Of a DNA stretch of 32,069 bases, positions 4,997 to 32,069 are shown piece after piece. The stretch comes from a virus. The DNA lies in the IMG/VR virus record IMGVR_UViG_3300045988_166554, positions 1 to 32,069 of that record; one strand, 5' to 3'. The position numbers and the translations under genes are program-made. Position 1 is the first letter of the stretch; each line of letters opens with the position of its first letter. The notes below the pieces were generated by a model. The model ran no database searches, was not told the origin of the DNA, and saw only the letters and a list, made by a program, of their open reading frames with translations.

Positions 4997-5766
4997 TAGA
5001 AGCAAAAAAAACATTAGTAGGTCAAATATCTTCTAATCAAAATTTACGTGGAGAACTTTTACCAAGAGGTCCTAAAGGAGATAAGGGCGAAAAGGGCGAT
5101 AAAGGAGATAAAGGAGATACTGGAGCAAAAGGTGCAGATGGTAAAGATGGTGCAATACAATATGAAGCAGGAGAAAACATCACAATAGAAGGTAATGTAA
5201 TTAGTGCAACAGGTGGTGGAGGAGGAGAAAATATTGCTTACACAATAGATGTTCAAGGAACAGAGAGTAATCCTACAATTATAGACAGAACTAAATTAAA
5301 AATAGGCGATTACATTTTAGTAAATGTAGAGAATACAAGATTTAAATTCACTGATACTACAAGTGGTACAGCGTTCTTATATAATGGTTTATACCAAATT
5401 TCAAATATGCCAAATAATCCTTCTACTGATAACCCCTGCATATTACAACTATTACCCAATTATTTTAGTAATTTGGGTGGTGTTTATTTTAGCACTTTAT
5501 TAATATACAATTATGTATCTATATCAACAAAGGAATATAACTTAAATACCAATGGGCAAAAATATGTTGACACGAGTTCTTTTCAATATATTTATGGATG
5601 GAAAAAGTTTGGAAGTACGATTGATGTTCCAACACCATCATCTGATAATAATGCAACCAACAAAAAATATGTAGATGCTTTGCCAACTACATATTCAGGG
5701 TATGACGCTACCAAAACTCAAGTATTAAAAAATATAAACGGAACCTTAACATGGGTTGATGAATAA
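4993..5766 (+). CDS. collagen-like (Gly-X-Y repeat) tail fibre protein
   Basis: Nine consecutive G-X-Y triplets: GPKGDKGEKGDKGDKGDTGAKGADGKDG. The Gly-rich linker GGGGGE follows. Confidence 0.6.
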   Translation: MIEAKKTLVGQISSNQNLRGELLPRGPKGDKGEKGDKGDKGDTGAKGADGKDGAIQYEAGENITIEGNVISATGGGGGENIAYTIDVQGTESNPTIIDRTKLKIGDYILVNVENTRFKFTDTTSGTAFLYNGLYQISNMPNNPSTDNPCILQLLPNYFSNLGGVYFSTLLIYNYVSISTKEYNLNTNGQKYVDTSSFQYIYGWKKFGSTIDVPTPSSDNNATNKKYVDALPTTYSGYDATKTQVLKNINGTLTWVDE

Positions 5767-8379: not shown

Positions 8380-9534
8380 CTAGTAATATTTATCAGTAGT
8401 TTCTGCTATCTCCTTTCTTATTTTTGTTGATAAATGACCATAGTGATTCACTGTGGTTGAATAATTAGAATGGCCTAATCGCTCACTTATGTGGTATAAT
8501 TCTTTACCTTCTTCCATCATTGTCGCAACATAAGTATGTCGCAAATCATACATTCTTATTTTTTCAACATTTGCTCTATCACAAAAATAATAGAACGATT
8601 TTCTTAAACTAACATCTGATATAGGCTTATTTGTTGTTCTATTTAAGAATATTAACTCATTATCGTTTACTTCATATCCTAATTCGTGAATTAAGAAGTA
8701 TTTATAGCTATTAATTTCATTTATCAATTTATCCGTAATATCTATTACTCTTTGTGATTGATATGTTTTTGTATGTGATATAAAGTCTTGTGAATTTTTG
8801 TTATAATTTATAGAATGTAATATTGAAACACTTTTTGTTTCTTTGTTAAACATATCAAAGGTCAATGCTCTTGTTTCCCCAATTCTATCTCCTAGTGTAA
8901 ATCCTATTAATGTAAGTATTTTTGTTCTGTAAGCAGTCTCTTTATAAATATTGTTTTCTATACAATTATTTATTTCATCTAAAAATTTTTTTAAATCATT
9001 GGTTGTCCAAAATTTCATTTTTGGTTTTTCTGTTTTATATTTTGTAATACCTATCATAGGAGAATAATATATATATTCCTCTTTAATACACCAATTGAAA
9101 AAAGTTTTTAGTTCTTTTAATATTTGATTTTTTTGTTTTAAAGAACAATTTTGATTTTCAATAAAGGTTATAAAATATTGTTTGTTTAATTTTGTTAATT
9201 TTACATTTATTTTATTTTTTAAATATTTATTATATGTTCTTTCTTTTCTTAATAGCGTGTTATATTCCAATTTTGCCTCGTATTTGCACCAAGTAATATA
9301 TTTGCACCACATGCTATCAAAATCTTCCTTATTAAGTGTTTCTGTTGCTTTTGCATGTCTAATTTTAGGATTATCTCTAATTTTTAATGCTTCTTCTAAT
9401 TTCATTATCTTTTTACCTTCTACAGAAGCTATAGAAGTTTTAACTGGTTTGCTTAACATGATAATATAATTTTTATTTTTGATATTTCTATATATATTTT
9501 GGTATCTTGTTTTTTCATATTTTTTTAAATCCAT
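8380..9534 (-). CDS. int: tyrosine integrase (site-specific recombinase, phage integrase family)
   Basis: 384 aa. C-terminal catalytic region ..MYDLRHTYVATMMEEG..LGHSNYSTTVNHYGHL.. carries the R..H..Y tyrosine-recombinase signature and the conserved LGH motif. Confidence 0.85.
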   Translation of the reverse strand: MDLKKYEKTRYQNIYRNIKNKNYIIMLSKPVKTSIASVEGKKIMKLEEALKIRDNPKIRHAKATETLNKEDFDSMWCKYITWCKYEAKLEYNTLLRKERTYNKYLKNKINVKLTKLNKQYFITFIENQNCSLKQKNQILKELKTFFNWCIKEEYIYYSPMIGITKYKTEKPKMKFWTTNDLKKFLDEINNCIENNIYKETAYRTKILTLIGFTLGDRIGETRALTFDMFNKETKSVSILHSINYNKNSQDFISHTKTYQSQRVIDITDKLINEINSYKYFLIHELGYEVNDNELIFLNRTTNKPISDVSLRKSFYYFCDRANVEKIRMYDLRHTYVATMMEEGKELYHISERLGHSNYSTTVNHYGHLSTKIRKEIAETTDKYY

Positions 9535-19345: not shown

Positions 19346-19762
19346 ATGAATTTAAAAGAAGCAAGTAATGAAATAGAAAAAATAGATAATGAAATAGAAT
19401 ATTGGTTAAACGAAAAAGAAATAGTAATAGGAAAAATATTACCTGGTGCGTTGGATGTTTCAAAAGAAGTCGTAGCAGGTGGGACAAGAACTGACAAATT
19501 TTTAAATTACATTATGAAAAATGAAAAAATAGATTACGAGCTTGATAAATTATATGCAAGAAAAAACAATTTAGAATCCTATGTAGAAAATGAATTACAT
19601 AGATTAGGAAAATACAAGGAAGTAGAAAAATTAATTATATATTATAAAGAGCAATGCTTAGAAAATTATACTTGGGAAGAAATAGGCAAAAAAGTATATA
19701 TGAGTAAAGACAATTGTAGAAAAATATATAGAAAATGGAAAAAACAAAGAAACATAGATTAA
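19346..19762 (+). CDS. putative late-gene transcriptional activator (ArpU/RinA-like, sigma-70 region-4-type HTH)
   Basis: C-terminus ..EKLIIYYKEQCLENYTWEEIGKKVYMSKDNCRKIYRKWKK is a region-4-like HTH. Last gene before the packaging module. Confidence 0.45.
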   Translation: MNLKEASNEIEKIDNEIEYWLNEKEIVIGKILPGALDVSKEVVAGGTRTDKFLNYIMKNEKIDYELDKLYARKNNLESYVENELHRLGKYKEVEKLIIYYKEQCLENYTWEEIGKKVYMSKDNCRKIYRKWKKQRNID

Positions 19763-20541
19763 ATTGCCCACCTATGCCCACCTTTTTTATGTTAATATAG
19801 TATTGTAAGAAAATGACTCATAAATTATGAGTTATTTGTTATTAGTAGCATACTGGTAGTTAAAAACTTTGTAAAGGAAAGGTTATAGCTAGACATGTTC
19901 CTTGGGCCTGAAATAGGGCGTAGAGGTAGCGCCTCCCGAAAATCCAAACTACCGGTATGGTGCTAATAAAGGCACTAGAGCATTAAGATTTAAGTAATAA
20001 TTTACGTGTTACCTTTGTAGGTGGCATAGAATATATATATATTAAATTCGGTTAGGTGGAATAACAGGAACTGGGAATTATCATAGGAAAAAAGTAAAAT
20101 ACCTAATTACTATGATTTAAGTACAAAAGACTGGTTTATATATATTCTATGGTGTCTATAAGGCACTGGAACTGATTTATTAAATTAGTTCTTCAAATAT
20201 TTTAAATTGTTTGTTTATTCCCTATTGGTACGGGAATTCACTATCTCTAGTGGGTAGTGTCTAGTGATATATAAAAGTCTAGGGGCAAAAGGTAATAAAG
20301 TAAGTTAGTAGTGTGGTTTCTATGCTTACAATTCTCTTGGAGGACACCACAAAGTGTTATAGGCATATAACATAAACCTTTATATCATTAGACAGTATCT
20401 ATTAAAGATACAATTGTAATCATAGTAAGAATTTTCTTACAGGCAATCTAAATGATTGCTTTTATTTTGGGTGTATAAAGGGAATAGGAACTATCAATAA
20501 TTACTATTGGTGGGTTGGCAAGATAGTTAAAAGAGGTAAAT
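19763..20541. other. ~780-bp non-coding, GC-richer, repeat-containing region upstream of the HNH/terS genes: candidate cos/pac site plus late promoter
   Basis: No ORF on either strand. Contains the tandem TGCCCACC-TA-TGCCCACC, the box GGTGCTAATAAAGGCACT (19959-19976) and its variant GGTGTCTATAAGGCACT (~20150-20166), recurring GGGAAT..ACTATC and GGAACT motifs, and three TCTAG(TG) copies. Confidence 0.5.
19816..19832. promoter_or_regulatory. perfect 17-bp palindrome ACTCATAA-A-TTATGAGT
   Basis: An 8-bp inverted repeat separated by 1 nt, 55 bp after the stop of the ArpU-like gene. Confidence 0.45.
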
Positions 20542-20925
20542 ATGAAAAGTATAACAAGGCAGATGATAAAGATTTATAATTTAAAAGAGCATGACTTTAT
20601 GGGTTATAAATTAATTAAAGATAATGCAACATACCATCATTTAATAAAAAAAGAAAATGGTGGCAAAGAAACAATAGATAATGGTGCAATATTAATGCCT
20701 GTTAGCCATCAATATTTACATATAATAGAATTCAAAGAATTTAATATATATGATGCTGTTAACAAAATAATGACTATATGTAACAAAAAAGGATGTATAG
20801 AAAAAGAAGATTTGGTAATTATTAGCGAGTTATTAAAAATGTTTGAAAAAAAACACATTAAAGACAAAACTAGTAAGGGAAAATCATTAATAAGGTATCA
20901 GCATTTAGATAGAATATACAGATAA
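20542..20925 (+). CDS. HNH endonuclease (terminase-associated)
   Basis: HNH motif YHHLIKKENGGKETIDNGAILMPVSHQYLH. Lies immediately upstream of terS. Confidence 0.7.
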   Translation: MKSITRQMIKIYNLKEHDFMGYKLIKDNATYHHLIKKENGGKETIDNGAILMPVSHQYLHIIEFKEFNIYDAVNKIMTICNKKGCIEKEDLVIISELLKMFEKKHIKDKTSKGKSLIRYQHLDRIYR

Positions 20926-20938
20926 GTGGAGGTGTAAT

Positions 20939-21343
20939 ATGTTAACCATAAAACAAGAAAAATTTGTACAAAATATTGTTAAAGGTATGAGTCAAAGAGA
21001 AGCTTATAAAAGTTCTTATAATGCTAAAAACATGAAAGATGATACTATAGATAACAAGGCATGTAATTTGTTTAAACAGGACAAGATAAGGGCAAGATAT
21101 GAAGAACTATTAAAGAGGATTGAAGATAAAGCAATCATGACAGCAGAAGAGAGACAAATATGGTTATCTAAAGTTGTTAAAGGAGATATAAAAATAACTA
21201 GAGAGTATGATGATGAAATAAAAGAATATGAGCCATATATGAGTGATAGATTAAAAGCAATGGATATTCTTAATAAAATGACAGGCCAGTATGTAGAAAA
21301 GGTTATGAATATACAACCACCAAATATTGAAGATGATGTTTAA
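20939..21343 (+). CDS. terS: terminase small subunit
   Basis: N-terminus MLTIKQEKFVQNIVKGMSQREAYKSSY matches the Terminase_2 (P27-family) signature LT.KQ..F. RBS GGAGGTG. Confidence 0.8.
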   Translation: MLTIKQEKFVQNIVKGMSQREAYKSSYNAKNMKDDTIDNKACNLFKQDKIRARYEELLKRIEDKAIMTAEERQIWLSKVVKGDIKITREYDDEIKEYEPYMSDRLKAMDILNKMTGQYVEKVMNIQPPNIEDDV

Positions 21344-22608
21344 TGAATATTAAAATTAGTGAAATAATAGCACCTAATTTTTATGAATTACATAGAGATT
21401 TAAAAAGTGAAAAAAATACTCATTATTGGTTGAAAGGTGGCCGTATCTCCACTAAGTCTTCGTTTATAAGTATTGAAATAATACTTGGGATAATGAAAGA
21501 TAAAAATGCTAATGCAGTAGCAATGAGAAAAGTTGGAGATACACTTGCTGATTCTGTTTATGCTCAATTAATATGGGCTATCGATAAATTGGGTGTTGGT
21601 TATTGCTGGGAAATGAAAGTGAGTCCTTTAAAATTAGTTTATAAGTTAACGGGACAAGAAATATTATTTCGTAGTGCTAATAATAAAGAGGACTATAAAA
21701 AAATAAAATCAATAAAAATAAAAAAAGGTTATTGTAAATATATATGGTATGAAGAGGTTGATGAATTCTTTGGTATGGAAGAAATAAGAAGCATTAATCA
21801 GTCGTTAATGCGAGGTGGGAATGTATTTAAAGTGTTTTATTCGTTTAATCCCCCCAAAAGTGTTAATAATTGGGTAAATGCAGAAATAATCATTCCTAAG
21901 CCAAAGACAATAGTACATCATAGCACATACTTAACAGTACCAAGAGAATGGTTAGGAGAGCCTGCTTTATTAGAAGCAGAACACTTGAAAAAAACAAATG
22001 AACTAGCATACAGAAATGAGTATTTAGGAGAGGCAACAGGTACAGGTGGAGCAGTATTTACAAATATAATTTTAGAAAAAATTACAAATGATGATATTGA
22101 GCATTTTGATAATATATTAGATGGTAACGATTTTGGTTATGCGGTAGACCCAAATTGTTATTTACAAATTCATTATGATAAGACACGCAGATGTCTTTTT
22201 ATTTTTAATGAAATATATAAAGTCGGTTTAAGTAATAGACAATTGTATGAAGAAATAAAAAAAGTAAAAATAGGAAACAGCTATATTACTTGTGATAGCG
22301 CCGAGCCAAAATCAATTGATGAATTAAAAAGTCTTGGTTTAAGAGTAAGAGGGGCGAAAAAAGGACCAGATAGTATTGAATATGGGATAAAATTTTTACA
22401 AAAACTAGAATTTATAAAAATAGATCCTGATAGATGTCCTAATACAGCCAAAGAATTTAAAATGTACGAATATGAAAAAGATAAAATGGGAAATTTTAAA
22501 AGCAAATATCCCGATAGCAATAACCATAGTATTGATGCAGCAAGATATGCGGTTGAAGATTATACAATTTCAAATACATGGCAAGTATCAAATAGAAAAT
22601 TAATGTAA
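21343..22608 (+). CDS. terL: terminase large subunit (PBSX/Terminase_3-like)
   Basis: 421 aa. N-terminal ATPase has a deviant P-loop LKGGRISTKS. The C-terminal RNaseH-like nuclease region has conserved acidic residues (..YLGEATG.., ..CDSAEPKSI.., ..HSIDAARYA..). Confidence 0.8.
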   Translation: MNIKISEIIAPNFYELHRDLKSEKNTHYWLKGGRISTKSSFISIEIILGIMKDKNANAVAMRKVGDTLADSVYAQLIWAIDKLGVGYCWEMKVSPLKLVYKLTGQEILFRSANNKEDYKKIKSIKIKKGYCKYIWYEEVDEFFGMEEIRSINQSLMRGGNVFKVFYSFNPPKSVNNWVNAEIIIPKPKTIVHHSTYLTVPREWLGEPALLEAEHLKKTNELAYRNEYLGEATGTGGAVFTNIILEKITNDDIEHFDNILDGNDFGYAVDPNCYLQIHYDKTRRCLFIFNEIYKVGLSNRQLYEEIKKVKIGNSYITCDSAEPKSIDELKSLGLRVRGAKKGPDSIEYGIKFLQKLEFIKIDPDRCPNTAKEFKMYEYEKDKMGNFKSKYPDSNNHSIDAARYAVEDYTISNTWQVSNRKLM

Positions 22609-24139: not shown

Positions 24140-25609
24140 GTGTTTCAAATGAATAATGCAGAAATACTGAGAGAAAGATGGAAAAACACAGATAAATATT
24201 TATTAAAATATCTTAAAAAATATAAAATTATAAATAGAAATACTAGAGATAATATACAAAATGTGTTTAATGAATTAAACATAGATTATAAGGATATAAA
24301 TAAAAATATTTCTAAACAACAAAAAAACAAATTAGACAGATTTATATTAAATCTAAAAAAAAATAAATTGCTTAAAGATTATTTTGGATACAAAGCAAGA
24401 TTAATATTTTCAAAAAAAAGTGTTACGTATTTAGAAATGATGGAAATAATGATAATGGCATGTTATATACAACAAAATGAAGATTTGAAAGAATATAATA
24501 ATCTATTGTTTTATGAAGTATGTAAAGAAAGTTACGAACAAGGAATAAAAGATATAGGAAAGATAAAAAAAATCAAACCTATATCTTTTAAATTGCCAAT
24601 ACTATATACAATACTTAATATTCCAATTTTTAATGCAACGGCTGAAAGTTATTTATATTCTTTGGCTTTAACAAATGCTGAAGAAACATTTAAACAAGTA
24701 TTAATAAATATGCAACTAAATAGAGAATTAAATGTTGATAATAAGTATTTTGAAAATTTGTTTAATAAACAAGATAATAGATTTATAAATATAAACAAAG
24801 ATAAAGCTAGTGGTGGTGTTGCCAATATAGTTGAAAATATAACCAATTTGGCATATTTACAATCCGGAATAGATACTAATACGACAGAATGTAGGTTTAT
24901 TGCTGAAATGGACAAAAGAACAACTAAAATGTGTGAAAGTTTAAATAATCAAGTGTTTAAAATAAATGAAATGAATACATATCAAAGGTATAGTGATGCG
25001 GATAAAAAAATTATAACATACCATACGCAAGGATTAGTAAGAGGCGAAAATTTACCTCCTATCAGTAATCATTTTCATTGGTGTAGAAGTACAATAACAT
25101 ACTTAACAGACATGCAAAGAAATGAACTTGATGAAAAGTTACAAACATTTAATGAAAAATTAGCCATTAGTAAATGGTTAAGTAGCGACTTCTATTACAT
25201 TAACCAAAAAATGTATATAGATCAAAAACTTACAAAGGATGAAAAAAGATTAGTGAAAGATTTATATAGAGGTTTAAACAAAGAACCATATTATATTGCT
25301 AAAAATGATGAATACATAATAAGAACTCTTGAAGTTGATGATAATACTATACAGGATATTATAAATACTCACCCACTTAATAAAATATATAAATCTAAGG
25401 CCTTTGAATCATATTCTTTAAAAAATAATTATAATCCTAAAGGAAATGTGTTTTTTTATGTTAAGGGTAGCCAAAAAGCGAGAAACATGTTAAAATATAA
25501 TCCAATGGAAAGAGAAGCTGAAGTTTTATATCAATATGGAACTAAGTTTATAACCAAAGATTATTATATTAACAATGGAAAACACTATTTCTTATTGGAG
25601 GAATTGTAA
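24140..25609 (+). CDS. minor head protein: MuF/SPP1 gp7-like domain fused to a C-terminal ADP-ribosyltransferase-like (R-S-E type) domain
   Basis: Phage_Mu_F block ..DKRTTKMCESLNNQVFKINEMN..PPISNHFHWCRST... The C-terminal ~130 aa carry R377 (LYRG), S424-Y-S426 and E457-R-E-A-E461, with the spacing of C2/C3-type ADP-ribosyltransferases. The ORF-track start is GTG at 24140; an ATG lies at 24149. Confidence 0.7.
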   Translation: MFQMNNAEILRERWKNTDKYLLKYLKKYKIINRNTRDNIQNVFNELNIDYKDINKNISKQQKNKLDRFILNLKKNKLLKDYFGYKARLIFSKKSVTYLEMMEIMIMACYIQQNEDLKEYNNLLFYEVCKESYEQGIKDIGKIKKIKPISFKLPILYTILNIPIFNATAESYLYSLALTNAEETFKQVLINMQLNRELNVDNKYFENLFNKQDNRFININKDKASGGVANIVENITNLAYLQSGIDTNTTECRFIAEMDKRTTKMCESLNNQVFKINEMNTYQRYSDADKKIITYHTQGLVRGENLPPISNHFHWCRSTITYLTDMQRNELDEKLQTFNEKLAISKWLSSDFYYINQKMYIDQKLTKDEKRLVKDLYRGLNKEPYYIAKNDEYIIRTLEVDDNTIQDIINTHPLNKIYKSKAFESYSLKNNYNPKGNVFFYVKGSQKARNMLKYNPMEREAEVLYQYGTKFITKDYYINNGKHYFLLEEL

Positions 25610-25785
25610 TGGATAAAGAAAAATTGTTTAAAGATCCTCGTTGGACGACATATCAACCAGTACAAGTATTAAATATTGATGTACAGCCGACTGAAGATGA
25701 CAAGAAAAAGGTTGAAGAATTTAGAAGATTTATTGATGAAACAATAGAAAATGAAAAAATGAAAGACACTAAATTAAAAAAATAG
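25609..25785 (+). CDS. small ORF (58 aa), translationally coupled (TAATG) to the MuF/ADP-ribosyltransferase-like gene
   Basis: RBS GGAGGAATTGTA. MDKEKLFKDPRWTTYQPVQVLNIDVQPTEDDKKKVEEFRRFIDETIENEKMKDTKLKK. Below the ORF-track size cutoff. Its stop lies inside the terminator stem. Confidence 0.45.
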   Translation: MDKEKLFKDPRWTTYQPVQVLNIDVQPTEDDKKKVEEFRRFIDETIENEKMKDTKLKK

Positions 25786-25795
25786 TGTCTTTTTT
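25765..25795 (+). terminator. rho-independent terminator
   Basis: GACACTA-aattaaaaaaa-TAGTGTC followed by TTTTTT. Confidence 0.55.
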
Positions 25796-25961
25796 GCTAC
25801 TATTTTATAGGTAGCTTAGAGTAGTTATGGAGTAGTCCTCAAGTAACTATTCTAAGGTGCTAATAAAGCACAAAGTCGATTGAATAAAATCGGCTTTTTT
25901 GGCGTGATTCACCGGAACGAATTATTTGGTTTTATCGACCGAGAAAGATAGGAGGAAGATT

Positions 25962-26555
25962 ATGAAAGATAATCAATATTTAATGCCATTGAACATTCAG
26001 TTGTTTGCTGAAGGAGGAGATGGTAATGTGGTTACTGATGGTACCGAAAATCCAACAGATGGCAATTCAATTGAAAATAAGCAAGAAAAAACTTATACAC
26101 GAGATGAATTAAACAAAATTATTTCAGCTGAAAAGGAAAAAGTAAAAGCAGAATTAATAAAAGATGCCGAAGCGAAGAGAACCGAAGCTGAAAAGTTAGC
26201 AAAGATGGATGCCGAAGAAAAACATAAGTATGAACTAGCAAAAGCTGAAAAAGAAAAAAATGATGCTTTGGCAAAATTAAATGCTTATGAATTAAAGGAA
26301 CAGGCAACCAAAATTGCAAATGAAAAGGAATTGGATATATCCTTACTTGATATCATTGATTATTCAAAAGAAACTGCTGATAGTGTTAAAGAAAAGATTG
26401 AAAGTATAGATAATGCTTTTAAAAAAGCAATCGAAAAGAGAGTCAATGAAAAATTACAAGAAAAAAGTCCAAGAAATGTAACATCTGCTTTATTGAATGC
26501 AGATAGGGAATATTTAAAAAATAAATACAAAAATAATCCTTATTTTAAAGGATAA
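25962..26555 (+). CDS. scaffolding protein
   Basis: The ATG at 25962 has an AGGAGGAAG RBS. N-terminus MKDNQYLMPLNIQLFAEGG, the common scaffold leader. Lys/Glu-rich coiled coil. Precedes the capsid gene. Confidence 0.75.
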   Translation: MKDNQYLMPLNIQLFAEGGDGNVVTDGTENPTDGNSIENKQEKTYTRDELNKIISAEKEKVKAELIKDAEAKRTEAEKLAKMDAEEKHKYELAKAEKEKNDALAKLNAYELKEQATKIANEKELDISLLDIIDYSKETADSVKEKIESIDNAFKKAIEKRVNEKLQEKSPRNVTSALLNADREYLKNKYKNNPYFKG

Positions 26556-29230: not shown

Positions 29231-29668
29231 ATGGAAGAAACTTTAGAATATTCTACTTTTAATGGAACAAAACTTGAGTATGCAGAAACAGAAAATGGAG
29301 AAAAAACACAAATAAAAGGACTTACAACTGTTCCTGATATCGGGGGAGAACCAAATGAAGTTGATACTACAACTCTTGATAATACAAAATATGAAACTTC
29401 TAAATATGGTTTAATGCCAGCAGTAAAATTGGCATATGAATACAATTTGGAAGATCCAAGCGCAACCGCTAATATAAAATTAGCGAGTGATTTAGAAGAC
29501 TCTGGAAAAACTTATTACTGGTGGTTAACATTTCCAAATGGAATTATTATTTCATATAGAAGTGCAGTAAGAACAGATATTAAGGGTGGTTCTAGTGGAG
29601 ATTTATTAAAATTTGGAATGTATCATAATCCTGTAAGTGAAATTACAAGGACAATTCCAACAACTTAA
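29231..29668 (+). CDS. major tail protein
   Basis: 145 aa. Strong RBS GGAGGGAGAAAAATT. Lies upstream of the chaperone pair and tape-measure gene. Confidence 0.65.
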   Translation: MEETLEYSTFNGTKLEYAETENGEKTQIKGLTTVPDIGGEPNEVDTTTLDNTKYETSKYGLMPAVKLAYEYNLEDPSATANIKLASDLEDSGKTYYWWLTFPNGIIISYRSAVRTDIKGGSSGDLLKFGMYHNPVSEITRTIPTT

Positions 29669-30139: not shown

Positions 30140-30414
30140 TGAATGAGTTATATGATGAATTGTTGAAATTTGATTTAACTTATGAACAGATGTACAAAAT
30201 GACAATTAGAGAATTGTTAAAAACGTTGGAACAAAGAAAAAAAGGACTGGCTTATAAAATGTGGAAAACGGCCAATTTAACAGGAGCTTCAATTGCTGGA
30301 AAAGAATTTCCATCAACTCCCGAAGAAGCATCACCAGAATTATATCCACCTAAAGTCAGTATAAAAATGCCAGACTTTTTAAAAGAAAAATGGTTAAAGA
30401 AGGGAGGTAAATAA
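30025..30414 (+). CDS. tail assembly chaperone frameshift extension (gpGT-like T domain), made by a -1 frameshift from 29756..30139
   Basis: The -1-frame ORF has no proper start (TTG in the ORF track). The slippery heptamer T_TTT_TTG lies at 30040-30046 in the overlap. The ORF ends one nt into the tape-measure ATG (TAATG). Confidence 0.7.
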   Translation: MCCFRFFEEKRLGGHGKFQEGKPSNANGKEKTRNITEIVNELYDELLKFDLTYEQMYKMTIRELLKTLEQRKKGLAYKMWKTANLTGASIAGKEFPSTPEEASPELYPPKVSIKMPDFLKEKWLKKGGK

Positions 30415-32069
30415 TGGAAAAAGAAACATTCGGTGTTGAGCTTGAGCTTATTACAAGTAAATTCAGTCAAAAAATGGAAACAATTAAATCAAAAATAAAT
30501 AATTTTGGTAAAATTACTAAACAAAATTTTAATATTGTAATGCATTTGAATATAGAAACAGCAAAAAGAGATTTGGCATCATTAAAACAGGAATTAATTA
30601 GTTTTGTAAAATCTAAAGATAATTTTGTAAAACCAATAAAAATAGATTTTGATACAGATGGTAATTTAAATTTAGATGAATCAAGTTTAAAAAAATTATC
30701 TACGTATAGTATGAAAAGTCTGAATACAATAGAAAAACTATTAACTCAGATTCAAAGTTTATCACACGACATAAAAACATTTGAAACGAGTAAAATAGCC
30801 AAATTAGGACAAGCGTTCAGCACTATAAAAGCACCTATTGATAAGATAAAAACTTCTATAAAAGCATCTAAAAATGGAATGAATGAATTTAGTTCATCTG
30901 TTAATAAAGCATTTAAGAAAGGAATAGCAAGTGTAAAACGATTTGCACTTTCTTTGTTTGGAATTCAGACAATTTGGAGGGCTGTATCAAGGGCTTCATC
31001 TGCATATTTATCTCAAGATGTAGAACTTTCTAATAAACTGCAAGCAGTATGGATAGGCTTAGGTTCTTTATTAGCGCCACTACTTGAGAAAATAAGTAAT
31101 TTTTTCTTAAAGCTAGTCGGTTATCTTAATGTTTTTATAAGAACATTAACTAATGTTGATTTATTGGCAAATGCTATGGCCAAAGCAAATAGTAATACCA
31201 AAGCAACATCAAACTCATTAAAACAATTAAAGGGGCAATTATCTGGATTTGACGAAATAAACAATATTGCTGATAATAATGCTGATACTGACACGGTTAA
31301 TACAGGTACTGGTTGGACTGATGCTTTTTCTAATATACAATTAGATACAAGTTGGACTGAAATAATTACTAATTTTGGTAATTGGATGAAAGATAACTGG
31401 CCTATTGTAGTAGGATTAATCGGTGGTACAGCTGTTGCCTTAGAACTTGTTAAACTAGGTGTTAAAGGGATAACATCTTTAGGAATAGGAGTTATATTAG
31501 CAGGAATTGTTTATTCAATACACGCTTTAATATCATATATAAAAGATCCTTCATGGGAAAACTTTGGAAAAATTTTAACTGGAATAGGAGTTATATTAGC
31601 AGGATTTGCAATAATAATCGGTGGGTGGCCACTAGCCGTAGCAGCCGCTATTACTTTGGTACTAGGAATTATATTGCAGAACTGGGAAAAGATAAAAACA
31701 TGGCTAAAAACAGCTGAAAATTGGATATATGATAAATTTATTAATCCAATAGAAAAGAAGTTTGGCTTGTTTGGACAATTTATCACAGAACCCATAAAGT
31801 TGGCAATTGATACAGCTAAAAAATTGTTTGGAGGGCTATTTACAGGCGTTAAACAAATTTTAGATGGAATTATACAGATATTTAAAGGCAATTTTAAAAC
31901 AGGAATAGTAAGTGTGTTTAAAGGAATAGGAAATATTTGTATTGCATGCTTAAATACATTAATAAATGGTTTGAATGCAGTTATATCTCCAATAAGGTTA
32001 TTAATTGTGGCAGTAGGAAAAGTTATGGGAAAAAATTGGTCTATGTCTAGCGTTAAAATTCCAACTATA
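30414..32069 (+). CDS. tail tape measure protein (N-terminal ~552 aa; ORF runs off the window and continues at 2..319; ~639 aa total)
   Basis: Hand translation shows no stop from 30414 to the window end. Coiled-coil N-terminus. The central region has several TM helices (GIGVILAGIVYSIHALI; GVILAGFAIIIGGWPLAVAAAITLVLGIIL). Positioned after the chaperone pair. Confidence 0.8.
   Translation, partial: MEKETFGVELELITSKFSQKMETIKSKINNFGKITKQNFNIVMHLNIETAKRDLASLKQELISFVKSKDNFVKPIKIDFDTDGNLNLDESSLKKLSTYSMKSLNTIEKLLTQIQSLSHDIKTFETSKIAKLGQAFSTIKAPIDKIKTSIKASKNGMNEFSSSVNKAFKKGIASVKRFALSLFGIQTIWRAVSRASSAYLSQDVELSNKLQAVWIGLGSLLAPLLEKISNFFLKLVGYLNVFIRTLTNVDLLANAMAKANSNTKATSNSLKQLKGQLSGFDEINNIADNNADTDTVNTGTGWTDAFSNIQLDTSWTEIITNFGNWMKDNWPIVVGLIGGTAVALELVKLGVKGITSLGIGVILAGIVYSIHALISYIKDPSWENFGKILTGIGVILAGFAIIIGGWPLAVAAAITLVLGIILQNWEKIKTWLKTAENWIYDKFINPIEKKFGLFGQFITEPIKLAIDTAKKLFGGLFTGVKQILDGIIQIFKGNFKTGIVSVFKGIGNICIACLNTLINGLNAVISPIRLLIVAVGKVMGKNWSMSSVKIPTI
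32015..32069. repeat. copy of 1..55 (terminal duplication)
   Basis: Exact identity to the window start. Confidence 0.9.

Follow-up and report, generated by a model that had tools for sequence, protein, structure and literature searches.

In lambdoid phages, the put and nut sites are present in more than one copy, as putL and putR or as nutL and nutR. Other structured RNAs of phages are ROOL and GOLLD (RF03087 and RF01998), non-coding RNAs (ncRNAs) of phages and prophages that lie beside tRNA islands and to which no function has been assigned (PMC5737381; PMC12286853). The locus described here can be compared with both. It is a gene-free island at positions 19763-20541 of a viral DNA of 32,069 nucleotides (IMG/VR record IMGVR_UViG_3300045988_166554; this whole stretch is called the window), in which three copies of one RNA module stand in tandem, while a fourth copy is found upstream of the scaffold gene. 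Each module is built of a hairpin H1, an abutting helix P2 with a variable tip, the cargo, and an abutting hairpin H2, the loops of H1 and H2 being complementary. Comparison of many copies shows this module to be a conserved, strand-specific RNA fold, of which no prior description was found in the literature or in Rfam. For the island as a whole, we put forward a reading that we give about an even chance: it would be the promoter and leader of the late (packaging and head) operon, working at the level of RNA and not as cos or TerS-binding DNA, and its modules would be late RNAs composed of a holder and a cargo.

The relatives of the island were reached through homologues of the HNH-like protein encoded directly downstream of it, which are 46-99% identical and led to eight IMG/VR loci; a module island adjoins the homologue in five or more of these loci. 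In the closest of these (L001; related loci are referred to by L numbers), the gap measures 959 nt; the match to the island is 96-98% over 200 nt at its start and 167 nt at its end, and the middle is different. Reading the gaps of the relatives side by side revealed the common unit of H1, abutting P2 with a variable tip and abutting H2. H1 is typically GCUACC-UUUAUA-GGUAGC, P2 is typically AUAGAGUAGAUA.../...UAUCUAUUCUAU, and H2 is typically GGUGCU-UAUAAA-GGCAC, giving a holder core of approximately 64 nt. An exact-word scan of IMG/VR with a 14-mer spanning the 3′ arm of P2 and the start of H2 (TCTATTCTATGGTG) detected at least 120 loci and, among the matches listed, 50 distinct full units. 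A second scan, with the H1/P2 junction (TATAGGTAGCATAG), added some 43 units in which the P2 arms and H2 stems are more varied. In GTDB genomes, an 18-mer of H1/P2 identified 18 contigs, all from metagenome-assembled genomes (MAGs), and at least seven were confirmed as full units. These contigs are mostly of gut or rumen origin and are labeled as uncultured Bacilli, 'Tenericutes', Clostridia, Christensenellaceae or Coprobacillus, with a few obvious mis-binnings. Altogether, at least about 80 distinct module copies were gathered from IMG/VR and MAGs. In BLAST searches of cultured (GenBank) phages, neither the island DNA nor a module unit with its terminator was matched, and a 7-kb query matched in the terminase genes alone.

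To evaluate the fold, 51 distinct units were laid out as fixed segments, i.e., the 5′ strand of H1, the last six bases of its loop, its 3′ strand, the 12-bp P2, the 5′ strand of H2, the next six bases and the 3′ strand of H2, with loops trimmed and GAAA in place of the cargo. MAFFT mis-registers the variable loops, and this pseudo-alignment was used instead. P2 and the loop helix stand at fixed offsets from the junctions, and units from the second scan were admitted on at least 9 bp of P2 complementarity. Standard pairs fill 97.5% of the cells, compared to 91.1 ± 0.3% in shuffles and 30-53% when partners are slid. Both sides have changed in 23 of the 30 base pairs (8.3 ± 1.8 in shuffles), and none of 500 shuffles equaled the observed value on any measure. 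Such double changes are found in five of six pairs in H1, 10 of 12 in P2, three of six in H2 (e.g., GGUGC/GCAC to GGUAC/GUACC) and five of six in the loop-loop helix. The latter is 93% paired, and in a permutation test the cognate loops reached 319.5 compared to 276.0 ± 6.4 for non-cognate ones, with none of 20,000 permutations as high; UUGCAG/CUGCAA, UUAAUUA/UAAUUAA and UAGUAG/UUACUA are examples of cognate loops. This covariation does not separate intramolecular from intermolecular loop pairing. G·U pairs are abundant, occurring for instance in 38 of 51 units at one P2 position, and in 66 of 71 loci the module runs in the same direction as the genes around it. This identifies the folded strand as the genes' sense strand and argues for RNA rather than duplex DNA. 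By this comparative evidence, the H1-P2-H2 module with its complementary loops is shown to be a conserved RNA fold tied to one strand. A further closing stem, P0, in which the 5′ flank AGUGC would pair with the 3′ strand of H2, was rejected, as cognate pairing equaled permuted pairing.

The same data bear on the idea that the units are miniature mobile DNA elements, like miniature inverted-repeat transposable elements (MITEs), or plain recombination boundaries, without any function as RNA. Imperfect inverted repeats of approximately 25 bp around variable interiors would suit such elements, as would the near-identical segments common to contigs that otherwise differ over the stretches compared. 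However, the 5′ strand of H1 and the 3′ strand of H2 lie outside the inverted repeat, pair with the interior and compensate. Orientation with respect to the genes is fixed in the 66 loci mentioned, tRNA genes are present inside some units, and no target-site duplication was noticed in the flanks that were read. A MITE or an element derived from an insertion sequence was rejected on the flank compensation, the fixed orientation and these flanks, and we accord the mobile-DNA reading hardly any probability.

The module can also be drawn as an extended rod, in which the loop pairing, a pairing of GGUAGC with GGUGCU and P2 are continuous. This rod contains an invariant G·G mismatch. Being an imperfect duplex of about 30 bp, it could act as RNase III-type punctuation: the rod would be cut and the cargo released, after which the flanks would refold, with H1 capping the upstream RNA at its 3′ end and H2 the downstream RNA at its 5′ end. 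It speaks for this model that nearly all copies allow both folds, the rod being 93% pairable and the minimum free energy (MFE) form of the first and third modules of the island, and that H1 and H2 truly compensate too, since such a dual constraint is what the model predicts; moreover, tRNA cargos need excision from the transcript anyway. Yet double compensation is essentially absent from the middle of the rod, which is interrupted in five copies; the rod is hence permitted rather than proven. In addition, RNase III sites seldom need such sequence conservation, and cutting the cargo-less module, which stands between two terminators (see below), would yield only tiny flanking fragments. We therefore regard punctuation as doubtful.

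All features of the island discussed here are on the plus strand. Three of the four copies in the window, namely B, C′ and the cargo-less copy, display H1, P2 and H2 without linkers, complementary loops, the sense orientation and an intergenic position; A does so with a weak H1. Module A (19831-19976) consists of H1 at 19831-19849, P2 at 19850-19861/19947-19958, a cargo at 19862-19946 with a G+C content of 44.7% that is 99% identical in L001, and H2 at 19959-19976. Module B (20008-20167) has H1 at 20008-20025, P2 at 20026-20039/20137-20150, its cargo at 20040-20136 and H2 at 20151-20167; it contains a 15-bp perfect inverted repeat (I5), and its MFE structure is the H1-P2-H2 form (z = -3.6). 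A spacer follows at 20168-20236, with one hairpin at 20168-20192, after which there is a U-rich tract, and another at 20218-20236. Module C′ (20241-20411), a junction variant, comprises H1 at 20241-20257, P2 at 20258-20271/20381-20394, cargo at 20272-20380 and H2 at 20395-20411; it corresponds to inverted repeat I1 and to a structural-scan match, with z = -5.0. The fourth, cargo-less module (25796-25872) is composed of H1 at 25796-25815, P2 at 25816-25828/25843-25855 and H2 at 25856-25872, and its MFE structure is the three-hairpin form (z = -5.1). Single modules thus fold with z scores of -3.4 to -5.1. The loop codes differ among the four copies: UUAUUA/UAAUAA in A, UUUGUA/UAUAAG in B, CUAGUG/UAUUAA in C′ and UUUAUA/AAUAAA in the cargo-less copy.

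A sequence-only reading of the window had already proposed a structured-RNA region here, and in this it finds support: besides the strong covariation, the plus strand of the island folds at -218.5 kcal/mol compared to -174.9 ± 6.0 in shuffles (z = -7.3), and the minus strand folds less well (z = -5.4). The Rfam search suggested along with it, however, gave no family. Rfam 15, with ROOL, GOLLD, GP20-a/b, tRNA, group I/II introns and riboswitches among its families, had no match at gathering thresholds in the whole window, a permissive scan of 19600-20700 returned chance-level matches only (E ≥ 2.5), and with the canonical units of L008 the best match reached 28 bits, far under the gathering score of that family. 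The window gave no tRNA with ARAGORN. Hammerhead, twister, pistol and hatchet ribozymes and the T-box were rejected, as their defining conserved cores are absent, and so were a retron and a CRISPR-like array for absence of reverse transcriptase and of repeats, in each case by sequence reading and Rfam scans.

Two further search tools were of limited use. The covariance model (CM) R1, for which three of eight seeds carried one-nucleotide loop edits and GAAA replaced the cargo, scores the cargo-less module at 49.1 bits (E = 8e-9), a copy absent from the seed. R1 detects short-cargo copies and splits copies whose cargo exceeds approximately 60 nt, which is a hit-length limit, and because of this splitting it was kept out of the census. 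A weak model match at 5442-5496 (11.9 bits, E = 0.7), which has a GGTGTTTATTTTAGCACT hairpin and is inside a coding region, is probably due to chance. A generic structural scan for H1, P2 and loop complementarity is too noisy in DNA this rich in A+T, as it yielded 35 hits with lax settings compared to 14-30 in shuffles, and is informative only at a P2 of at least 12 bp.

Behind module C′, the island continues with a hairpin at 20425-20440 and an intrinsic-terminator-like hairpin at 20441-20461, detected in terminator scans, whose T-run extends to 20468. By eye, the islands of L002 and L012 end in terminator-like hairpins with T-runs at the equivalent position. The last part of the island (20469-20541) is a conserved box preceding the ribosome-binding site (RBS), GGGTGTATAAAGGGAATAGGAAC...GGGTTGGCAA, with the stem AACTATC/GATAGTT and the RBS AAAGAGG at 20530-20536. 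Its G-rich portion, GGGUGUAUAAAGGGAAUAGGAAC ... UUGGNGGGUUGGCAA (20469-20527), with a 7-bp closing stem, stands just 5′ of the RBS of the first gene after the island. Similar G-rich boxes are seen in L001, L002 (3920-3985), L005 (6065-6130), L101 and L135 (4340-4420); in L135, the box stands before another module rather than an RBS. This box may be a separate small RNA motif.

The window is a segment of a temperate siphovirus-like genome of 27.7% G+C, with a minus-strand integrase gene (8380-9534). The genes for the head and for packaging encode a small (Terminase_2) and a large (Terminase_3) terminase subunit, a portal of the SPP1 type, a scaffold and a major head protein. The island had been described as the largest stretch without open reading frames (ORFs) and as richer in G+C than its flanks, which holds in both respects. 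It has no ORF of at least 60 aa on either strand and is the largest such gap in the window; its G+C content of 31.8% exceeds that of the window (27.7%) and of the adjoining 3 kb on either side (24.9% upstream, 28.2% downstream). At the 94th percentile among 779-nt windows, it is richer, not extreme. The seemingly larger gap at 30471-31510 lies within a tape-measure-like ORF whose frame is open from 30411. This ORF (30411-32069) runs past the window end and is omitted by tools that require a stop codon, hence the false gap of approximately 1 kb in ORF lists.

The motifs named in the sequence-only reading were all found, with positions right to a base or two, apart from one count. TGCCCACC is present in exactly two copies in the window (19765-19772 and 19775-19782), with TTTTTT behind them; the 17-bp palindrome ACTCATAAATTATGAGT is located at 19816-19832, and the boxes GGTGCTAATAAAGGCACT and GGTGTCTATAAGGCACT at 19959-19976 and 20151-20167. 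The 13-mer GGTGCTAATAAAG has one further occurrence, at 25856-25868. TCTAGTG has the two expected copies, at 20246 and 20260, and a third at 29591. For GGGAAT..ACTATC, reported three times, two copies are full (20232-20245 and 20480-20495) and the one at 20073 is only partial. Neither of the last two forms a coherent repeat family, the copies of GGGAAT..ACTATC sitting in unrelated elements, and both were discarded as such.

From these boxes and the neighboring genes it had been suggested that the island probably holds cos, or possibly pac, and that the boxes bind the small terminase or the late activator. The position fits, as the island lies just upstream of the genes for the HNH-like protein (20542-20925) and for the small (20939-21343; Terminase_2, PF03592) and large (21343-22608; Terminase_3/Terminase_3C, PF04466/PF17288) terminase, all on the plus strand. 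The tandem TGCCCACC repeats are moreover probably a protein-binding DNA site. The GGTG..GCACT boxes, however, which had been taken for DNA repeats bound by the small terminase or the activator, are halves of strand-specific H2 hairpins with G·U pairs, whose stems and loop pairing covary. The 13-mer that was seen as a shared promoter element occurs in the H2 of module A and in that of the fourth module. The same module is also present upstream of scaffold, portal and unrelated genes, and beside tRNAs. As to the argument that HNH-associated terminases act on a nearby cos, the HNH match (Pfam E = 8.5e-4, 19.9 bits) is under the cut-off of 21.4 and the protein has no PHROG match, while the portal belongs to PF05133 (SPP1 type). 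An HK97-like, HNH-dependent cos was rejected on this match and because large terminase and portal are not of the HK97 type. The closest cultured relatives of the large terminase form the phiCP39O group, for which circular permutation and terminal redundancy are given as putative, and phiCP39O itself clusters within the headful-packaging branch (PMC3442830). With terminase, portal and phiCP39O pointing to headful packaging and the supposed binding repeats being strands of RNA hairpins, the cos reading is weak, and we consider it very improbable that the island holds cos or pac with these boxes as protein-binding sites, although a pac site may exist somewhere in or near the island.

The late promoter that had been proposed for the 5′ end of the island is borne out better. 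The gene directly upstream (19346-19762, plus strand) encodes a protein of 138 aa that matches PHROG 36, 'transcriptional regulator' (E = 1.2e-7). Pfam gave no match for it, ArpU included; in NCBIfam at E ≤ 0.1 there was only a trace resembling sigma-70 region 4 (E = 0.043) and no match to the ArpU model, and tblastn against GenBank phages gave none. The name ArpU-like, used for it in the sequence-only reading, is thus not confirmed. Its stop codon is at 19760-19762, so that the gene ends 3 nt before the first of the two direct TGCCCACC repeats (19765-19782). These repeats have a 10-bp period and are a candidate binding site for the regulator, overlapping the -35 position. A T-run separates them from the -10-like hexamer TAATAT (19793-19798), which stands 10 nt past the second repeat. 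Homologues of the regulator are encoded in 12 loci, each time followed by phage-specific tandem repeats. In nine different phages, right behind the stop codon of the regulator homologue, there is an own 6-9-mer at a period of 10-11 bp: TGACACC (in L001), GAGCACT, TGTCAC, GACACGATT, ATGTCCG, ATTGCAYA (three copies), ATGTCCC, GATACG and TGCCCACC. Most related loci have a TAnAAT-like hexamer 9-11 nt past the repeats and a hairpin thereafter. Relatives thus have repeats at the -35 position that are conserved in place and variable in sequence, together with a -10 hexamer. A repeat of constant position whose sequence varies along with the protein is what marks a regulator/operator pair at an activator-dependent promoter. 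The TGCCCACC repeats and TAATAT therefore look like an activator-dependent late promoter served by the adjoining regulator gene, as judged from this comparison of loci. A late transcription start is predicted near 19805, ahead of a 5′-proximal hairpin (19811-19837) that holds the 17-bp palindrome and corresponds to inverted repeat I10 (MFE -11.1 kcal/mol, z = -5.1). The operator was found only once in the window.

In L012 (4314-4400) and L105, a canonical-looking intrinsic terminator is seen by eye at most about 35 nt from the putative late start, and in L007 (621-720) a hairpin and then a terminator-like hairpin stand behind it. By analogy, this layout recalls PR′-tR′ of phage lambda, and the regulator may act as an antiterminator.

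Terminators are also prominent around the fourth module. A terminator-like hairpin T1 (25763-25795, plus strand) overlaps the stop codon of a conserved 58-aa ORF (25609-25785) and directly precedes the cargo-less module, which holds the recurring 13-mer in its H2. The intrinsic terminator T2 (25874-25901, plus strand), detected by terminator scan, stands between the module, which it directly follows, and the scaffold gene (25926-26555; PHROG 172, E = 1e-39). The order terminator, module, terminator and scaffold gene is also found in L011, L020, L028 and L084, whereas L045, L064, L088 and L104 have a module, a terminator and a scaffold-like gene with no evident terminator upstream. A near-identical copy of T2 is present behind modules in L011, L020, L064, L088 and L104. 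With T1 and T2 ahead of the genes for those proteins that are most abundant in the virion, an unseen promoter or processive antitermination is implied.

This raises the question whether the holder itself is a cis-acting elongation element, resembling HK022 put or a nut-type site to which a phage protein binds, which as nascent RNA makes the polymerase resist the terminators that follow, with the cargo as a tolerated insertion at a stem tip that is dispensable. Modules do follow the sole recognizable late promoter and precede the first strong terminator, and one stands just before T2. A terminator is present within 70 nt downstream of 13 of 50 modules (26%), compared to approximately 2% of windows taken at random, most of them coding. 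To reach the capsid genes from the single promoter found with an operator, the polymerase has to pass at least three terminators, and the two in front of the scaffold and capsid genes in themselves imply some antitermination. The holder occurs without cargo and in several copies in an operon, like putL/putR or nutL/nutR, and the strongly conserved junction together with one conserved P2 G·U suggests recognition by a conserved host factor. On the other hand, the canonical terminator of L012 and L105 precedes any module and must consequently be passed in another way, and T1 likewise stands before the cargo-less module. No alternative pairing between H2 and T2 was seen. In L100, module and terminator are, by eye, followed by a consensus-like promoter, like the end of a transcription unit, and the variable copy number, the swapped near-identical cargos and the link to tRNAs and ROOL look like accessory RNA genes. 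An elongation element is thus considered a serious possibility, if an unlikely one.

The surroundings and contents of the modules bear on the holder-cargo reading. All 50 units from the first scan (among the matches listed) are in ORF-free gaps of 260-4300 nt. When the 44 first downstream ORFs of at least 80 aa were searched against PHROG, large terminase was matched six times, portal twice and a major head protein once. Head scaffolding was represented by PHROG families with three, three and two members, which possibly overlap, small terminase by four single-member families and HNH by three. tRNAs often adjoin modules and can be inside them: L080 has a complete tRNA-Trp as cargo in the P2 tip, and the cargo of L059 is called as tRNA-Arg with an insertion. 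The cargo of L013, L025 and L121 is tRNA-like with a long insertion, matching the Rfam tRNA model at 42-47 bits. This tRNA-like cargo (L013, L025/L056, L028 and L121; e.g., L121 1284-1401) has a D arm, an anticodon-like arm and a T arm, and its variable region is enlarged by approximately 50 nt of additional hairpins; the acceptor stem merges into P2, leaving no free 5′ or 3′ end. In L024 (5781-7353, minus strand), one non-coding island upstream of the portal gene contains, in this order, a module, nine tRNAs and a ROOL RNA (131 bits). tRNA and this one ROOL match are the only Rfam families in the related loci, beside or inside units.

Cargos also appear in different settings. Cargo B is 98% identical in L045, where it sits inside a holder with a different P2, and cargo C′ has counterparts in L143 (97% identity) and in L101 and L134 (72%). 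The spacer at 20168-20238 is 100% identical to L011 2915-2984, while unit, cargo and downstream gene of L011 differ (over the stretch compared). More generally, contigs that otherwise differ over the stretches compared share non-coding segments of 70-110 nt at 97-100% identity, which suggests recent recombinational exchange of RNA modules between phages. About one fifth of the units have almost no cargo. In L100, module and terminator are followed, by eye, by a consensus-like promoter.

Under the reading favored here, the regulator would bind the two 8-bp repeats, one helical turn apart and over the -35 position, and together with TAATAT bring about activator-dependent late transcription. The RNA from approximately 19805 would carry the 5′ hairpin and three tandem modules, whose loops would kiss or, alternatively, extend P2 into one rod, and the P2 tip of each module would be an exchangeable cargo domain. 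The modules would be transcribed together with the late genes and remain as stable small RNAs, which are excised or else end at adjacent terminators. The holder of about 64 nt would be a nuclease-resistant, self-folding frame, with conserved flanks allowing cargo swaps between phages. The cargo RNAs, i.e., tRNAs, tRNA-like and other structured domains, would act in trans, like the tRNAs and ROOL in the islands of relatives. Since the leader ends in a terminator (20441-20468) and one operator copy was found, expression of the late genes would need terminator read-through. The holder-cargo reading is favored because the cargos are conserved, are swapped like accessory genes and include tRNAs, and because of the apparent end of a transcription unit in L100.

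Several points weigh against this reading or limit it. Many modules lie directly beside terminators within the operon for abundant proteins, which fits an elongation role at least equally, and the cargo-less copy and the fifth of copies with a short cargo indicate a separate role for the holder, which a frame for cargo does not explain. We infer, rather than observe, the transcription of the modules, its start site, and the processing and stability of the RNAs. Regarding the fold, the alignment was built from structure, with the H1 5′ and H2 3′ strands placed by best pairing, so that the values for helices 1 and 4 lean towards the model. A linker-free intramolecular kiss of 6 bp may be strained, the rod is the MFE structure of modules A and C′, and H1 of module A is weak, with 5 bp of which two are G·U, and overlaps the 5′ hairpin. 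Finally, the module may already be included in a 2023 catalogue of 8,495 unnamed RNA candidates from IMG/VR (PMC10690425).

A bolder version of the holder-cargo reading can be offered tentatively, as an unlikely extension of it. The module would then be a natural RNA cassette of gut and rumen phages, a self-folding, pseudoknotted holder of about 64 nt that protects and displays swappable late-effector cargos, among them tRNAs, mimics of tRNA that have long extra arms, and other domains, which phages would exchange by recombination at the conserved flanks. Through their covarying loop code, which differs from copy to copy, modules may self-pair or assemble, in the manner of the packaging RNA (pRNA) of phi29 or the cages of ROOL and GOLLD. 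Cargos might for example be decoys for tRNA-targeting defense nucleases, or modifiers of translation.

If the holder-cargo reading is true, a widespread and well-supported RNA family joins the short list of structured phage RNAs beside tRNA islands, up to now ROOL and GOLLD, and its core of about 64 nt with a naturally swappable cargo makes it experimentally tractable. The long gene-free stretch before terminase that is often annotated as 'cos/pac region' can then be a promoter with an array of RNA genes. Additionally, nine regulator/operator pairs would become available for studies of late-gene control in phages of uncultured AT-rich gut Bacillota.

Among the known systems, ROOL and GOLLD are the nearest in their biology, sharing with the module the setting in tRNA islands and the loop-loop contacts; GOLLD sometimes has tRNAs in its variable linker, and ROOL occurs in the same island as a module in L024. 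However, there is no sequence or CM match, and the module core of approximately 64 nt contrasts with their 580-800 nt. The module also has tandem and dispersed copies with a swappable cargo at one stem tip, and there is no evidence of multimer cages. HK022 put, lambda nut and the boxA of rRNA operons are likewise short structured leader RNAs of the sense strand, located between promoter and terminators and present more than once per phage. Yet put consists of two stem-loops without cargo arm or loop-loop covariation and has no known sequence relation to the module, and some terminators here come before the first module. The arrangement of a regulator gene abutting a late promoter, with sites that overlap this promoter and a non-coding leader that ends in a terminator, is reminiscent of lambda Q with PR′, 6S RNA and tR′, and of RinA/ArpU. 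The regulator described here nonetheless matched neither family in the tests run, and its leader of approximately 660 nt is built of RNA modules.

RNase III signals such as the T7 R sites, the SP82 early signals and the rRNA stalks are also long imperfect stems that enclose or separate stable RNAs, and the hairpins left by cutting stabilize mRNA ends. Compared to these, the module adds two conserved side hairpins with covarying loops and a conserved junction. The pRNA of phi29 resembles the module as a three-helix RNA with two complementary, covarying loops, from a phage of Firmicutes and linked to the packaging stage. Its loops, however, pair between molecules to form a ring on the portal, in a terminal-protein phage without small terminase, whereas the phage described here has a small and a large terminase and several modules with different loop codes per genome. 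A phi29-type pRNA was rejected, as the classical pair of small and large terminase is present. With cos and pac sites, i.e., the HNH-dependent cos of the HK97 type and the pac of SPP1, the island shares the position beside terminase genes and the presence of repeats, but the repeats are halves of RNA structures and the terminase type suggests headful packaging. The module, which matches no Rfam family, is accordingly rated as belonging with the structured ncRNAs that phages carry in tRNA islands and late leaders.

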